The notes beneath the pieces were generated by a model that saw nothing but the letters and a program-made list of their open reading frames with translations, did not search any database and was not told the origin of the DNA. A stretch of 64,000 nucleotides of DNA from an uncultured Bacilli bacterium. GTDB taxonomy: Bacteria; Bacillota_I; Bacilli_A; RF39; UBA660. A program made the position numbers and the translations under genes. The stretch covers positions 5,153-69,152 of the forward strand of contig CALVXC010000002.1 in the NCBI GenBank assembly GCA_944368805.1, in the 5' to 3' direction. Of this stretch, positions 1 through 5,374 are shown piece after piece; the stretch's first letter is position 1; each line of letters starts with the position of its first letter.

Positions 1-194
1 TATTTTCAATTTTTCAAGAAATATCAGCAAGTAGATAAATTAGAAAGAGGTTTATTACTCGAACTAATTGATACGATTTACATTTATGAGGGTAATCAAA
101 TAGAAATTAAATTTAAGTTTGCAGATCAACAAAAACATATTTTAGCTTTGATTAAAGAATATCAGAAAACTAAAACGAAAAAATTTGACCTTTA
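1..194 (+). CDS. C-terminal end of a large serine recombinase; 5' part lies upstream of the window. Paralog of the recombinase at 3254-4972.
   Basis: The in-frame tail ...[23 protein letters not shown]...TKKFDL* aligns with the C-terminus of the 572-aa recombinase (LLLELIEKIYIYPNKEVEIKFKF). It ends at TAG 192-194. Confidence 0.6.
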
Positions 195-200
195 GAATAT

Positions 201-482
201 GTGTCTACTGGAGCAACGGGTGCAACAGGAGCGACAGGAGCAACAGGGCCAGCTACTATAACAGTAGGTACAACAACAACAAGTGAACCGGGCACATCGG
301 CATCAGTTGTTAATTCAGGAACCAATCAAAATGCTGTTCTTAATTTTATTATTCCTCGTGGTGCGACGGGAGCAACAGGGCCAACCGGACCAACAGGACC
401 AACTGGTGCTACTGGAGCTAGTGGAGCAACAGGGCCAACCGGACCAACGTTTTCAGTAACACAAACCAATAACTATAGCTAA
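201..482 (+). CDS. Collagen-like G-X-T repeat protein fragment (BclA-like). GTG start, no RBS; likely a cassette or 3' gene fragment.
   Basis: The translation is [16 protein letters not shown] triplets around a non-collagenous core ...[25 protein letters not shown]. It is homologous to ORF 4991-5374. A hairpin plus T-run terminator follows. Confidence 0.5.
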
Positions 483-498
483 AATCACAACCAAAAAA

Positions 499-536
499 AG
501 AATTATTGAAGGTGCAACTCAATAATTCTTTTTTAA
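499..536 (+). terminator. Rho-independent terminator
   Basis: aagaattattga-N-tcaataattctttttt. Confidence 0.6.
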
Positions 537-938
537 TAATAAATGAAACATTTTTAAATATTAGAATACAAAAAATGCCTAATTTATCTTTTAATCGTTA
601 TAAACAAAAAATAAAGGAATTGTAATAAAATTATTTCATTACGAACCCTTTGTTTATCAAATTATTTCATATTATGATTTAATTTCAATTTTCTATTTTT
701 TGTTCTTTCATAACTAGATATATAATCTATTTCTTTTTTATGAAAAAATACTTAATATTTCAAGCAGATTTTTAACTTTTTTAATTATTAGGCTTGTTTT
801 GTCCAATATTAAAAAGAAAATCCATAATTTTATAAGCTTTCATACTTATATTTTTTCTTTAATCATATATTAAAATTGATATTTCTATTTAAATGCGCTA
901 TAATATTTTAAACTCCAAAAACAAGGTTGTGGTAGAAG

Positions 939-1541
939 ATGAATGATCATTTAAAAAAAATTATAATTTTAATAATAATTATAACCATTTACATCGGGAT
1001 ACCATTATCAATACTAATTAATTTAATAAGTTTTGAATATAAGTTTCATGCTTTAACCATTGGTGGGGTAATTGTATATTTGTTATCCATATTATTAGGT
1101 TTTAAAAATAAGGATTTAGGAATAACTAATCTCAAGTTATTCTTATCAATTAAAAAAGTTCTACCTATAACATTTGTTCTATCAATACTAGGAATTATAA
1201 TATATCTTTTAGGGTTTTCTAGAATAACCCCAAATGAAAGTGTATTATTTTTTGTATTCTATGTTTTTGTTTCATGTCCAATTCAAGAGTTTCTTTATAG
1301 AGGCGTTCTTTCATGTTATTGTGAATTTTTTAAACTGAAAATAGTTAGTTCGGCTATTATCACATCGTTACTTTATAGTTTTATACATATAGTTTATAAT
1401 GACATTCTGACTCTTGTTTTAACCTTTATGATTGGCTTAATTTGGTTTTTTAATTATAATAAATCCAAAAATTTACTTGGGGTTAGTATAAGCCACATTA
1501 TATTAGGCGTTATAACTATATTAACAGGAATGATTAATTGA
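939..1541 (+). CDS. CPBP-family intramembrane metalloprotease (CAAX protease / bacteriocin-immunity Abi type)
   Basis: Polytopic membrane protein with the CPBP motifs EFLYRG and FxxxH (YSFIHIV). Ends at a TGA stop. Confidence 0.6.
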   Translation: MNDHLKKIIILIIIITIYIGIPLSILINLISFEYKFHALTIGGVIVYLLSILLGFKNKDLGITNLKLFLSIKKVLPITFVLSILGIIIYLLGFSRITPNESVLFFVFYVFVSCPIQEFLYRGVLSCYCEFFKLKIVSSAIITSLLYSFIHIVYNDILTLVLTFMIGLIWFFNYNKSKNLLGVSISHIILGVITILTGMIN

Positions 1542-1680
1542 AAATCATATAGGTGGTGATAGTATTACTACCAAGAAGAAAAAAAAGAACTCAAAAAAGA
1601 ATAAAAATAGAACTGTAGCAAGCCATAATAAAAAAGAAGTAACAGAAAATTTTAAATCAATTTTTTTATTACTTGTTTCC

Positions 1681-2617: not shown

Positions 2618-2661
2618 CTATTTTGAAGTAGTGTTTTATTGGCGTTATGAGAATATATGAA

Positions 2662-2717
2662 GGACATAAAGGGGGTCAGTATTAAAGTGAGCGGGGTTGT
2701 GAGCAGTTGAAAATACC
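2662..2717. repeat. Right arm of inverted repeat
   Basis: GGACATAAAGGGGGT[10-nt insert]GTGAGCGGGGTTGTGAGCAGTTGAAAATACC. The core is 16/17 identical to the left arm in inverted orientation. Confidence 0.7.
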
Positions 2718-2889
2718 TAAAAACCTTTATTTCCCAAAGATTAAGACAAGTTGTTTTCCGTTTACTATTTTAAGACAAAAAGGAAAAAGCGTTCAGGCGA
2801 CTTTTGAAATTGCCCAAACACTTTTCCTTATTTGCCTTTTGGGGCAGTAACCGAAAACAAAGGTAAATGATTATCAGCTGTTTTATTGT

Positions 2890-3228
2890 TTGATTTTTTT
2901 GTCATACGTCCTTTTTTGTTTCATAGGTTTAACTATGAAAGGGGGCGTTTTTTTGTGGACAAAAAATGAATTGAAAATGTTAAGCGAAATAGATATTAGA
3001 AATATAAATCCTGATGAATTACTAGAAATATCGGAACTAAATATTTCTTCAACATTACCAATAGAACAAAAAATGGAATTGTTATCACATTTTCTTAAAA
3101 ATCCATATTGTTATAAAGTTGATGGCGTACCTGTAAAAATTAGCTTTACAAATCATAATCAAAAATTATCTGATTGTTTGTCTAATTACTTTATAAATAA
3201 AATTAATTCGGAATATGACAAACTATGA
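2890..3228 (+). CDS. Hypothetical protein (112 aa) directly upstream of the recombinase
   Basis: ORF only; no motif recognised. Could be an accessory or directionality factor. Confidence 0.3.
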   Translation: MIFLSYVLFCFIGLTMKGGVFLWTKNELKMLSEIDIRNINPDELLEISELNISSTLPIEQKMELLSHFLKNPYCYKVDGVPVKISFTNHNQKLSDCLSNYFINKINSEYDKL

Positions 3229-3253
3229 TATAATATTTTTGTGGTTGTGATTA

Positions 3254-4972
3254 ATGGAAAGGAGAATAATTATTAATCATGACAAATTACCTATAAATCT
3301 ATCTAAATTTGTTCATTATTTTAAAAAATTGTATGACGGTAAAATGACATGGCGTATTGGTATTTATGTAAGGTTATCAAAAGAAGATGGAAATTCAGTA
3401 AGTGCCAGTATTGAAAATCAAATAAAAAGAATTGCCAGATATCTAAGGGATTTTGAAGATTTTGTTATTTATGATATTTACATTGATGATGGTTTAACGG
3501 GGACAGATTTTAATAGAGAAGATTATATACGTTTACAAAATGATGTAAAATCAAAACGTATTAATTGTGTTGTTTTTAAAGATTTAACAAGATATGCCAG
3601 AAATTTAGCTGATGGAATTAAGGAACTTGATACTTTTGTTTTAGAACATAAAATCCGATTTATATCACTTCGTCCAGAAGTAGATACATTCAAAAATCCT
3701 AGAGCCATTTCTAGTGCAGAAGTATATGAAGAATTACAGCAAGCCGAAGCCCATGCTAGAACGACTTCTTTAAAGGTAAGAGAAATCAAGGAATTACAAA
3801 GAGAAGATGGTGAACCAACTGGCGGATTTCCACCATATGGTTTTATTAGAAGTTCTAATTCTAAAGAATGGATAATAGATGAATACGCCAGTGAAATTAT
3901 TAAGAAAATCTTTAAGTGGTATGCTGATGGTTTATCAATTAATAATATTGCTAAAAAATTAAATTCGTTAGGAATTTTAAATCCAACAGCATATAAACAA
4001 TCAATAGGTTTAAAATATAAAAATCCTCATGCTATAAATAATAGTGGTTTATGGTGGCCGACAACAGTATCAAGAATTTTAGAAGATAAAAATTATATTG
4101 GTTATTCAGTACAAGGCAAAAGTAGTTCTTTTGACCATAAAAGACATAAACAAGAACCCAAACCAAAAGAAGAATATATAGAAGTTGTGAACGCTCATGA
4201 AAAGGCTGTTGATGAAGAATTGTTCAATTTAGCTATCAATAATAAAAAGCAACATGCAAGAGCTACTAAATCGGGCGAAAAGCATATTTTTTCAAATCTT
4301 GTTTGTTGTGCGAATTGTAAAAGGTCAATGGCTAGAACAAATTCAGGTAAAAATGTTTATTTAGTGTGTAGAACATATAGAACTTTTGGAAAAGAGTATT
4401 GTAATGAAAGAACATCAATAAACTATGAACAGTTGGAAAAAATAGTTTTAAAATCAATTCAAGCACAAATAAATTTGATTGACGATTTACAAGAAGTGAT
4501 TGAGAAAATTAATCAAAATAAAAAAGTCAATAATAAATCTTCAAGGATTGATAAACTTATTAAAAACAACGAACAACAAATAGCAAAAGAAATAAATATT
4601 TTAGATGAAAGTTATTATGATTGGAAAAATGGTGATATATCAAAAGAACAATATCATAGAGTAAAAGAAGAAAAGGAAAAGAAAATCGAACAGTTAAGAG
4701 AAACATTATATTATTTAGCTGAACAAGAAAGGGAACTGAAAAAAGGAATAGAAGCAAATAACATTTTTTTTACTCGCTTTTTAAAATATAAAAACATAGA
4801 AAGTTTAGATAGAAAATTATTATTAGAACTTATAGAAAAAATATATATTTATCCTAATAAAGAAGTTGAAATAAAGTTTAAATTTCAAGATGAATATTTA
4901 CTAATATTGGATTATATAGAAGAAAATACAAAGAATACAAAGCAAAAAATAAAGACAAAAATAAAGCATTAA
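3254..4972 (+). CDS. Large serine recombinase: resolvase catalytic domain, recombinase domain, Zn-ribbon, coiled-coil. The true start is possibly the ATG at 3341.
   Basis: N-terminal MTWRIGIYVRLSKEDG catalytic-Ser motif. C-terminal CCANCKRSMAR...YLVCRTY Cys cluster followed by a coiled-coil, as in phiC31/TP901/SpoIVCA-type integrases. Confidence 0.85.
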   Translation: MERRIIINHDKLPINLSKFVHYFKKLYDGKMTWRIGIYVRLSKEDGNSVSASIENQIKRIARYLRDFEDFVIYDIYIDDGLTGTDFNREDYIRLQNDVKSKRINCVVFKDLTRYARNLADGIKELDTFVLEHKIRFISLRPEVDTFKNPRAISSAEVYEELQQAEAHARTTSLKVREIKELQREDGEPTGGFPPYGFIRSSNSKEWIIDEYASEIIKKIFKWYADGLSINNIAKKLNSLGILNPTAYKQSIGLKYKNPHAINNSGLWWPTTVSRILEDKNYIGYSVQGKSSSFDHKRHKQEPKPKEEYIEVVNAHEKAVDEELFNLAINNKKQHARATKSGEKHIFSNLVCCANCKRSMARTNSGKNVYLVCRTYRTFGKEYCNERTSINYEQLEKIVLKSIQAQINLIDDLQEVIEKINQNKKVNNKSSRIDKLIKNNEQQIAKEINILDESYYDWKNGDISKEQYHRVKEEKEKKIEQLRETLYYLAEQERELKKGIEANNIFFTRFLKYKNIESLDRKLLLELIEKIYIYPNKEVEIKFKFQDEYLLILDYIEENTKNTKQKIKTKIKH

Positions 4973-4990
4973 TTTTTTTTAATAGCTTAA

Positions 4991-5374
4991 TTGGTTTTTG
5001 TTTCAGACTACACCGGACCAACAGGCGCTACTGGAGCTAGTGGAGCAACAGGAACAGCTGGAGCAACAGGAGCAACAGGGCCAACTGGGCCAACCGGACC
5101 AACCGGACCAACCGGAGCTAGTGGAGCAACAGGAACAGCTGGAGCAACAGGAGCAACAGGGCCAACCGGACCAACAGGACCAACAGGGCCAACCGGACCA
5201 ACAGGAGATACAGGAGCAACAGGGCCAACAGGTGCTACACCAATTTTAACTATTGGTACAGTAAATACTGGTGCACCTGGAACATCAGCAGCAGCAGATA
5301 TAACAGGAACAGCACCTAACTTTGTTTTGAATCTTACTATTCCACAAGGACCAACCGGACCAACTGGACCATAG
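4991..5374 (+). CDS. Collagen-like G-X-T repeat protein fragment (BclA-like). TTG start, no RBS; stop lies 3 nt before the GT gene.
   Basis: (GPT/GAT)n repeats, with an internal ~75-bp DNA duplication. Non-collagenous core [36 protein letters not shown] is homologous to the core of ORF 201-482. A 26-nt block gctactggagctagtggagcaacagg is identical in both cassettes. Confidence 0.5.

Follow-up and report, generated by a model that had tools for sequence, protein, structure and literature searches.

Why should two genes for serine recombinases each be followed directly by a collagen-like open reading frame (ORF) that has no start codon? The question is raised by the left end of the DNA considered here, a stretch of 64,000 nucleotides from an uncultured Bacilli bacterium (contig CALVXC010000002.1, positions 5,153 to 69,152; hereafter the window). 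The window opens inside one recombinase gene (rec1) and contains a second (rec2), and an ORF encoding Gly-X-Thr repeats lies directly downstream of each. A first-pass annotation, made from the letters alone, offered two explanations: (a) that the recombinases exchange cassettes of a gene for a BclA-like spore-surface glycoprotein, or (b) that small integrative elements had inserted serially into a collagen repeat, each leaving a 3' gene fragment behind. The comparison with related contigs presented below makes it very probable that one collagen-like gene of 228 codons has been split twice, and independently, by two serine-recombinase elements inserting into its Gly-X-Thr repeat. These are referred to as element 1, which carries rec1 and reaches into the left end of the window, and element 2, which carries rec2 and lies entirely within it (Table 1).

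One collagen-like gene in three pieces

Everything that had been described for this region was recovered, with small corrections of coordinates, when the window was re-examined. The tail of rec1 occupies frame 1 from 1 to 192, with a stop codon at 193-195 (previously given as 1-194), and the second recombinase is by Pfam indeed a large serine recombinase of 572 amino acids (aa). The identity between the rec1 tail and the rec2 C-terminus, estimated at about 50%, is 49%; overall the two proteins are 39% identical. The Gly-X-Thr ORFs were confirmed at 201-482 and 4991-5374, and the pattern GGNCCNACNGGNCCNAC has 19 matches in the window, all of them inside these two collagen ORF stretches, and 0 in 100 shuffles. 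The 26-nt block that is identical in both ORFs is GCTACTGGAGCTAGTGGAGCAACAGG, located at 411-436 and 5030-5055. The second ORF also carries the duplication that had been noted, with a period of 81 bp, however, and not of about 75 bp (2.3 copies at 5012-5197, 90% matches).

Overlapping contigs were obtained by exact look-up of rec2 and are given here with L numbers. One of them, L001, extends the sequence by 6.8 kb to the left of window position 1, where the first-pass annotation had suspected a 5' part of the gene, and supplies both the complete rec1 and a 5' gene part with a ribosome-binding site (RBS). The 5' piece sits just after a histidine-kinase gene and, interrupted as it is, stops after 30 codons (…GPTGATV, stop). 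An intact homologue in L120 follows a histidine kinase as well, as at the locus of the window.

Contig L012, found by look-up of the downstream glycosyltransferase, belongs to the metagenome-assembled genome (MAG) GCA_947853065.1. Over 11.4 kb it matches the window with 99.6% identity, by which the MAG is assigned to the same species. In L012 the first fragment runs directly into the second, and the sequence equals the left flank plus the right flank of the window to the base. As L012 is continuous here, the stretch from 449 to 5013 of the window is therefore an insertion, namely element 2. Contig L119, from the same species, is without either element at these two sites, and in it the gene can be read without interruption from its start codon, across the first module and on into the repeat. 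At the site of element 1 this contig has a synonymous variant with an equal number of triplets. The middle segment is joined to the 5' part in L119 and to the 3' part in L012, and the resulting architecture is that of intact homologues. Throughout the gene pieces the reading frame is kept perfectly and internal stops are absent. From these alignments the start-less cassettes are consecutive pieces of one collagen-like gene encoding 228 aa, and it is because both are internal pieces of this gene that neither ORF has an ATG or a Shine-Dalgarno sequence, as had been reported. The middle piece has no start codon, and its frame is closed by a short tail encoded by the element, followed by a terminator-like hairpin. 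The possibility that this tail and terminator form the natural end of a second collagen gene was ruled out, since L012 reads straight through.

Explanation (b) was in this respect close to the mark. Serial insertion into a collagen repeat agrees with the defined ends of the elements and with the empty sites found in related contigs (L012 for element 2, L119 for element 1), so that each element is absent somewhere with the gene in frame. Two homologous 3' fragments were not left behind, however, as the ORFs are the middle and the 3' segment of a single gene.

A search with the joined protein returned thousands of relatives. Those inspected are 155-290 aa long, and most follow one common plan, i.e., a Cys-rich N-terminus of about 30 aa (MNN..ERAL.KI..D..CKP.CC), a few Gly-X-Thr triplets, a first beta-core module, a Gly-X-Thr repeat, a second module and GPTGP. 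The protein of the rebuilt gene is built likewise, with a short Cys-rich N-terminus and two beta-core modules separated by Gly-X-Thr repeats, and matches to PF01391 together with the Gly-X-Thr runs define its central collagen-like region. No signal peptide was seen by eye. The non-collagenous core that the two ORFs were said to share is thus real, but it is an internal duplication that all intact homologues possess, with the two modules in the same order. The BclA_C domain is absent from the collagen-like gene of the window, and scans of its protein against NCBIfam and PHROG gave only generic collagen-adhesin and tail-fibre matches below the family cut-offs. The glycosyltransferase gene that follows (Table 1) has its counterpart in other contigs, where the same pairing is found beside the intact homologue P0063 (L123/L124). 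The protein resembles BclA of Bacillus and BclA1-3 of Clostridioides in its central Gly-X-Thr region, its short N-terminal domain, the lack of a signal peptide by eye and the adjacent glycosyltransferase. It differs from BclA by the missing BclA_C domain and by its two beta-core modules of 38 aa, which are also found in phage tail-fibre families. Its predicted glycosylation and place on the spore surface are indicated by the neighbouring glycosyltransferase gene.

Two start-less ORFs with a shared core, each directly downstream of a recombinase gene, would also be seen if a system of the shufflon or invertase type swapped collagen 3' cassettes onto one 5' part, as in explanation (a). Such an exchange is most improbable at this locus. 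In L012 the first ORF leads head to tail into the second, and all intact homologues have them in this order. Neither ORF is part of the element preceding it, and the recombination sites, instead of flanking cassettes as inverted pairs, are direct and mark the ends of elements that carry cargo. There are no alternative cassettes; unlike the segments of a shufflon those found here are consecutive parts of one gene, and both, in this sequence, are needed for the protein seen in relatives.

It is scarcely credible that the arrangement arose in the assembly, by repeats joining unrelated contigs into a chimera. Collagen repeats do break and mis-join assemblies, contig L004 (see below) being most likely such a case, and L003 and L012 have their starting point on an element junction or only a few bases away from one. 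On the other hand the order of rec1, fragment, element 2, fragment and glycosyltransferase is repeated in independent assemblies from different samples (L001, L002, and L009), the junctions lie between unique sequence and repeats, and the empty site was predicted to the base. The arrangement in the window is no accident of assembly.

Table 1. Coordinates of the gene pieces, the two elements and their attachment sites (window positions unless a contig is named; the core dinucleotide is bracketed).
Feature	Location	Strand	Description
5' piece of collagen-like gene	L001 525-610, 6.4 kb upstream of window		29 codons, RBS, sequence MNNYERALEKIAQDQRCKPLCCFGPTGAT; homology to N-termini of intact relatives
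Element 1	L001 611-7009 (6,399 bp), ending at window 208		carries rec1
attL1	L001		…GGGCCAACCGGTGCT[AC]TGTGTAGTG…
rec1, 3' end	1-195	+	last 64 codons and stop; full gene L001 5338-6996, 552 aa
attR1	178-238	+	element arm ...TTTGACCTTTAGAATATGTGTCT, AC at 207-208, gene arm TGGAGCAACGGGTGC; short form …ATATGTGTCT[AC]TGGAGCAACGGG…
Rebuilt junctions of element 1			attB1 = GGGCCAACCGGTGCTACTGGAGCAACGGGTGC; attP1 = AGAATATGTGTCTACTGTGTAGTGTTAAAAAGG
Middle segment	209-448	+	about codons 29-109: (GAT)5, first beta-core module, then Gly-X-Thr repeat
attL2	418-478	+	gene arm ...GGGCCAACCGGACCA, AC at 447-448, element arm GTTTTCAGTAACACAAACC; defined against empty site in L012; short form …GGGCCAACCGGACCA[AC]GTTTTCAGTAACAC…
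Element 2	449-5013 (4,565 bp, one copy of the AC core counted)	+	exactly this stretch is missing from L012
Element-encoded tail	449-482	+	11 codons with stop, ends the interrupted frame; same module after the gene in L119
Hairpin and T run, terminator-like	494-534	+	-15.6 kcal/mol, z = -6.35, 0/200 shuffles fold as well
CAAX/Rce1-like membrane protease	939-1541	+	PF02517, E = 1.1e-10
Hydrophobic cargo ORF	1681-2217	+	no family match
61-codon ORF	2334-2519	-	at the place of an intact 203-204-aa gene in sister elements
Palindrome	2571-2632		31-nt arms, perfectly centred; between relaxase-like remnant and DUF6870 gene; -33.3 kcal/mol, z = -7.7
DUF6870 gene	2953-3228 (start uncertain: 2890, 2935 or 2953)	+	PF21757, E = 2.7e-20; directly upstream of rec2
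rec2	3254-4972	+	572 aa, large serine recombinase
attR2	4973-5043	+	element arm ...TTAATTGGTTTTTGTTTCAGACTAC, AC at 5012-5013, gene arm CGGACCAACAGGCGC; short form …GTTTCAGACTAC[AC]CGGACCAACAGGCGC…
Empty site of element 2	L012		…GGGCCAACCGGACCA[AC]CGGACCAACAGGCGC…
Rebuilt junctions of element 2			attB2 = GGGCCAACCGGACCAACCGGACCAACAGGCGC; attP2 = TGTTTCAGACTACACGTTTTCAGTAACACAAACC
3' segment	5014-5374	+	Gly-X-Thr repeats with 81-bp duplication, second beta-core module, stop
Glycosyltransferase family 2 with TPR repeats	5378-6466	+	Pfam; starts 3 nt after the collagen-like gene

Probable crossover within a Thr codon

The alignment of attL, attR and attB of element 2 leaves only the dinucleotide AC in common, which is the kind of shared crossover dinucleotide that the first-pass annotation had hoped to define. 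The left end of element 2 is identical in L001, L002, L009, and L119. At element 1 attL1 and attR1 have CTACTG in common, with the AC inside it, and L119 gives the uninterrupted site. At both elements AC represents the first two bases of the Thr codon in a Gly-X-Thr triplet, and both are inserted in the same codon phase and in the orientation of the target gene. The earlier guess that crossover takes place inside GGACCAACNGGACCAAC DNA was correct.

In the rebuilt attP2 the inverted arms TTATTGGTTTnTGTT are equidistant from AC; 20/30 positions are symmetric around it, which is the best of 30 centres and was reached in 0/2000 shuffles. Such a pattern, in which a 2-bp core is flanked by imperfect inverted half-sites and the target is not duplicated, is characteristic of large serine recombinases, an assignment that is made here by sequence comparison. 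The resemblance of GTTTTCAGTAAC at the left end to GTTTCAGACTAC at the right end was also considered as a direct repeat, and was dropped as the inverted symmetry of attP explains the ends better.

It is proposed that each recombinase would recognize an attB composed of collagen-repeat coding DNA, approximately GGN-NCN-[AC]N-GGN-SCN-ACN, with strand exchange at the AC that starts the Thr codon. As such a motif would occur every 9 bp there would be many landing sites per gene, and this recurrence would explain the presence of two elements in one gene. Insertion would switch the gene off, precise conservative excision would restore it exactly, and each element would be a potential reversible OFF/ON lock. 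By analogy with the recombinases TnpX and TndX, occasional spontaneous excision and re-insertion without helper proteins may be expected. In having unrelated elements piled up at one locus and in the same orientation the gene resembles the tandem arrays at a single attB, e.g., tRNA or icd islands (PMC7192596). In such arrays the newcomer uses the attB core regenerated at the end of the resident, whereas each element here uses its own copy of the 9-bp-periodic motif and gene pieces are left between them.

The recombinases

Both recombinases have the Resolvase (PF00239; E = 1.2e-17 for rec1 and 5.6e-14 for rec2), Recombinase (PF07508) and Zn_ribbon (PF13408) domains, and both are encoded at the right end of their element, with a DUF6870 gene upstream. 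The segment YVRLSKEDG...ENQ of rec2 aligns to the catalytic domain of the TP901-1 integrase, and its catalytic domain aligns also to the recombinase of a Clostridioides difficile conjugative transposon and to TnpX (E = 1.8e-8 for TnpX). The best annotated relative of rec2 is TndX, with 29.5% identity over 85% of rec2 (E = 2e-48), followed by proteins annotated as "DUF4368 domain-containing." By these alignments both recombinases are distant members of a TndX-related group.

The crossover dinucleotide of TnpX and TndX is GA, and in this they differ from the elements described here, which use AC. A further difference is the low identity of about 30% together with a DUF4368 match that stays below threshold, and neither the accompanying DUF6870 gene nor a target consisting of protein-coding collagen repeat, with all insertions in one gene class, is a feature of TndX (Tn5397) and TnpX (Tn4451/3). 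What the two groups have in common is the domain order with a weak DUF4368-like C-terminus, the position of the recombinase gene at the end of the element, insertion at many sites that share a motif, and small elements with variable cargo and a relaxase-like gene. The TndX-like transposases belong to a clade of multi-targeting recombinases for which DUF4368 is a marker (Durrant et al., 2022; PMC10083194), and for TnpX and TndX neither integration nor excision requires an accessory protein (PMC2475636).

The rec1 cluster has 3 members, and the full-length rec1 protein was found on 2 contigs. An identical rec2 protein is present in another host and together with different sets of cargo genes. 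Two side observations concern more distant relatives. At many loci in Lachnospiraceae the matches to rec2 span about 4.5 kb, which suggests two or three tandem recombinase genes. The recombinases encoded by MT837700.1 and neighbouring records, unannotated 'Bacteriophage sp.' entries of 4-7.5 kb obtained from human faeces, share 27-36% identity with rec2, and these small records from phage collections may be excised circles of similar small elements.

Collagen-like genes as targets

The preference for collagen-like DNA was followed in recombinases at least 90% identical to rec2 (the rec2 cluster) by look-up in other contigs. The right ends of their elements are constant (…TTGGTTTTTGTTTCAGAYTAC[AC]) and are joined to nine distinct right flanks of 15 nt. 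In all nine the junction reads ...CAGAYTAC[AC] followed by MGG, and all nine flanks are Gly-X-Thr in frame. They fall in three different collagen-like genes, i.e., the gene of the window, a gene in L098 and L007, and a gene in L117. Several of the flanks can be placed at separate triplets within the gene of the window, in L102 for instance at about window position 375. A sister element of 11.2 kb in L119 occupies a third site in the same gene, with its left junction at the equivalent of window position 5103. It is clear that three genes have been hit, one of them at three positions.

The target gene in L098 and L007 is from a different organism and encodes a CBM5/12-like stretch, collagen repeats and a BclA C-terminal domain (PF18573 in L098, 42.8 bits with a cut-off of 38). 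The GC content is 43% in the flank of that gene and 25.5% in the window. Between L119 and L098 the 11.2-kb element is 99.7% identical over 9.7 kb, and it must therefore have moved recently between species. The suggestion that the interrupted gene is BclA-like remains plausible in view of the BclA_C domain in targets of sister elements, but does not extend to this domain in the gene of the window itself.

More distant recombinases were surveyed in the 80 best relatives, with one genome per species. Collagen-coding DNA was located beside the recombinase in only 4 of the 80, namely L018 (40% identity), L019 (39%), L026 (38%) and an isolate of Enterocloster aldenensis (L031, 36%). The first three rank among the closest full-length relatives, and the gene interrupted in E. 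aldenensis has a weak BclA_C match (28.7 bits). On this distribution collagen targeting looks like a property of this small recombinase clade. A second recombinase lineage uses the same gene family: L108 contains (4307-6642) a prophage with replication-organiser, methylase and repressor genes, inserted in a homologous collagen/beta-core gene at the junction …CCCCTAC followed by TGGAGCACC…, and its serine integrase of 462 aa, which is 24% identical to rec1, is by that measure unrelated to the recombinases considered here.

Two other contigs need comment. In L026, a GC-rich Oscillospiraceae MAG, the recombinase (38% identity) directly adjoins the 5' part of a collagen-like gene that runs in the other direction (1-5350), and ORFs resembling by eye a dTDP-glucose dehydratase and a nucleotidyltransferase are located between the recombinase and another collagen stretch. 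In L004 (2495-3100) the right end of element 2 is joined to the left end of the 11-kb element, and the GC content changes from about 30% to more than 60% after a tRNA-like remnant. This was considered as a third element in the same gene and rejected as a probable chimera between strains or species, formed via a shared collagen repeat of 92 nt.

Contents of the elements

Apart from its recombinase the left part of element 2 holds cargo that is not shared with its sisters (Table 1). The 61-codon ORF is probably the truncated remnant of a relaxase-like gene, in view of an N-terminus that is similar by eye, its matching position and the flanking hairpin. The intact protein of 203 aa encoded in L007 matches the Replication-relaxation family PF13814 with E = 3e-4 and 21.3 bits, which is below the cut-off. 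A hairpin-forming stretch of 96 nt (window 2318-2413, z = -5.2) is 96% identical to L007 3170-3265 despite otherwise different cargo, and forms the left edge of a shared module of relaxase-like gene, DUF6870 gene and recombinase gene. The palindrome between the remnant and the DUF6870 gene is a candidate oriT or bidirectional terminator, and at its position L007 has a hairpin of different sequence. Compared with an integrative mobilizable element, the sister elements have the sub-threshold Replic_Relax protein beside a strong palindrome, whereas the copy in the window retains only the 61 codons. A DUF6870-like ORF is located immediately upstream of the recombinase in 39 of the 80 related loci (L018-L097), and DUF6870 could be an accessory or helper protein or a directionality factor; no literature mentioning DUF6870 was found.

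Element 1 carries small ORFs, an AAA_21 ATPase, a DUF92 membrane protein, a SocA/Panacea-domain protein, DUF6870 and rec1. The sister element in L119 encodes a polyprenyl synthase, a DUF92 protein, a CDP-alcohol phosphatidyltransferase, an SLH-LRR surface protein of 947 aa and the relaxase-like protein of 203 aa. The DUF92 genes of the two (L001 3291-4129 and L119 3653-4492) are 97% identical and in opposite orientation, and cargo modules are exchanged between elements with different recombinases. With element 2 the L119 element shares its left end (about 100 nt) and, at 97-99% identity, its right end with DUF6870 and recombinase genes, the cargo between being different.

A scan of positions 1-5500 for sigma-70 promoters gave a chance-level result (36 sites vs. 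33.5 expected), and a terminator scan of the same positions gave 0 terminators, under a rule that requires G-C pairs in DNA that is AT-rich. Elsewhere in the window a protein of 372 aa on the reverse strand (39474-41444), beside a MerR-type regulator, matches the VirD4-like coupling protein family CD1115 below threshold and is possibly a remnant of another conjugative element. Between housekeeping genes, and also on the reverse strand, 23732-24328 has a weak sub-threshold match to Rpn recombination-promoting nucleases/putative transposases.

Active elements or relics

Several points weigh against the view of two functional elements that use collagen-repeat DNA as attachment site. The symmetry of attP1 is weak, its symmetric block TTTGnCCTTT accounting for 14/30 positions, a value reached by 59/2000 shuffles. 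Neither a circular form nor an attP junction is present in any contig examined, and the empty sites may be ancestral alleles that were never occupied instead of products of excision. The DUF4368 matches of rec2 (22.0 bits) and the rec1 tail (22.6 bits) are both under the Pfam cut-off of 25, and with an identity to TndX of only about 30% the expectation of helper-free excision is an extrapolation. With its relaxase-like gene lost, the window's copy of element 2 may have ceased to move from cell to cell. Finally, some of the nine junction variants may have arisen by repeat slippage beside one insertion. Scans of JGI metagenomes with the 5' gene part and with the right end of element 2 gave 0 matches each, and a scan of IMG/VR also gave 0 matches.

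Taken to their conclusion some of these points would make both elements fixed relics and the collagen-like gene a dispensable pseudogene in this lineage. The 61-codon remnant of the 203-aa gene in element 2, the occurrence of element 1 in few contigs (the rec1 cluster with its three members) and the missing attP junction would all fit such dead insertions. They are nevertheless unlikely. The genes for both recombinases are intact over their full length, one and the same rec2 protein accompanies different cargo sets and hosts, each element is present in some and absent from other contigs that are about 99.6% identical, and the gene pieces have kept the perfect frame without internal stops described above.

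The host and sporulation

The window contains, at 48135-50301, a sigma-factor gene (48135-48794) followed directly by homologues of spoVAC (PF03862) and spoVAD (PF07451, E = 3e-122), in an order that corresponds to the layout of the spoIIA/sigF-spoVA region. With a sigma factor, SpoVAC and SpoVAD in a row the host therefore has sporulation genes, and by gene content it is probably an endospore former. It is known here from metagenome and MAG contigs, with a GC content of 25.8%.

In Bacillus the element CATA…TA represents the -10 region of promoters used by the mother-cell sigma factors E and K (B. subtilis consensus). A CATAnnnTA box is found at -28/-29 from the ATG of the target gene (L001, about 496-504) and of its homologues in three contig sets (L120, L121, and L123). 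It is followed in all four by GAAAGGAG, while the remaining upstream DNA is dissimilar by eye and the contig sets are apparently from different organisms. The background frequency of CATAnnnTA in the window is 4.5e-4 per nt, and the placement of a -35 'AC' upstream of it is inconsistent. From this box and from the relatives bearing BclA_C, the best reading of the target product is that of a spore-surface glycoprotein made in the mother cell.

It is conceivable that excision is programmed to sporulation, i.e., that the elements are kept in the germ line and cut out in the mother cell where the gene is rebuilt, as with skin in sigK, SPbeta in spsM, gin in gerE and yin in yabG. The sporulation genes of the host, the mother-cell-type box at the target gene and three homologues, and the BclA C-terminal domain in related targets are in agreement with this, as is a target protein without a signal peptide (by eye) and with a glycosyltransferase as partner. 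Removal would leave no scar and would keep the frame. In all contigs that span the gene (the window, L001, L002, L009, and L119) it is interrupted by one element or more, and the prophage with an unrelated integrase in L108 is also found inside a homologous gene. The known gene-intervening elements of spore formers are furthermore all located in mother-cell genes (PMC5595907; PMC4191935; PMC10747680).

Programmed excision is nonetheless regarded as possible but doubtful. No CATAnnnTA was found upstream of DUF6870 or the recombinase at the five loci of the window, L001, L031, L018, and L019, and rec2 is preceded by an extended -10 box of the sigma-A type (TGATATAAT at 3226-3234). The presence of an identical recombinase, and of an element with 99.7% identity, in hosts whose GC contents differ widely points to actively spreading elements and not to domesticated ones, the cargo genes are unlinked to sporulation, and no excision product was seen in the contigs examined. 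The comparison with skin, SPbeta, gin and yin (PMC5025042; PMC4191935; PMC5595907; PMC10747680) has accordingly two sides. Here too the coding region of a gene with probable mother-cell expression is occupied by a serine-recombinase element whose excision would bring back the exact reading frame, and gin, too, is small and not a prophage. The elements described here differ by the absence of a mother-cell promoter motif at their recombinase genes, by an attB that is a repeated motif, so that one gene holds two or three elements, and by their movement between distant hosts.

A wider proposal that would accommodate both spread and sporulation is put forward only tentatively. A clade of TndX-related recombinases may have evolved to use collagen-repeat coding DNA (GGN-NCN-ACN) as a portable, multi-copy attachment site in BclA-type genes of many Bacillota. 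As such genes are needed only in the mother cell, which is lost once the spore has formed, the elements could behave in the manner of skin or SPbeta. One, two or three independent germ-line locks would then be excised either spontaneously or in sporulation, with a heritable ON/OFF state of the outer nap of the spore as the result.

Implications

That a multi-targeting serine-recombinase element can interrupt a gene of a spore former is known already; what is new is the proposed use of the code for a protein repeat as a multi-copy attachment site across species, by which one small gene can hold several elements. Nothing relevant was found in the literature on serine recombinases, intervening elements or BclA with respect to collagen-like targets, and collagen is not mentioned in a survey of genes inactivated by integrative elements (PMC7192596). 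For annotation, the finding implies that start-less collagen-like ORFs beside recombinase genes should be read as split genes and not as pseudogene debris or cassettes. For genome engineering, the system would offer a natural serine recombinase with a defined attP, an AC core and a short, degenerate and repeated attB.

For the biology of mobile elements, a target DNA whose sequence is dictated by the structural code of a protein repeat would represent a new route to an attachment site that is present in multiple copies and in a broad range of hosts. For spore biology, a probable spore-surface collagen-like gene would join the short list of recombinase-interrupted genes of spore formers, and would provide a testable case in which a single gene carries more than one lock.

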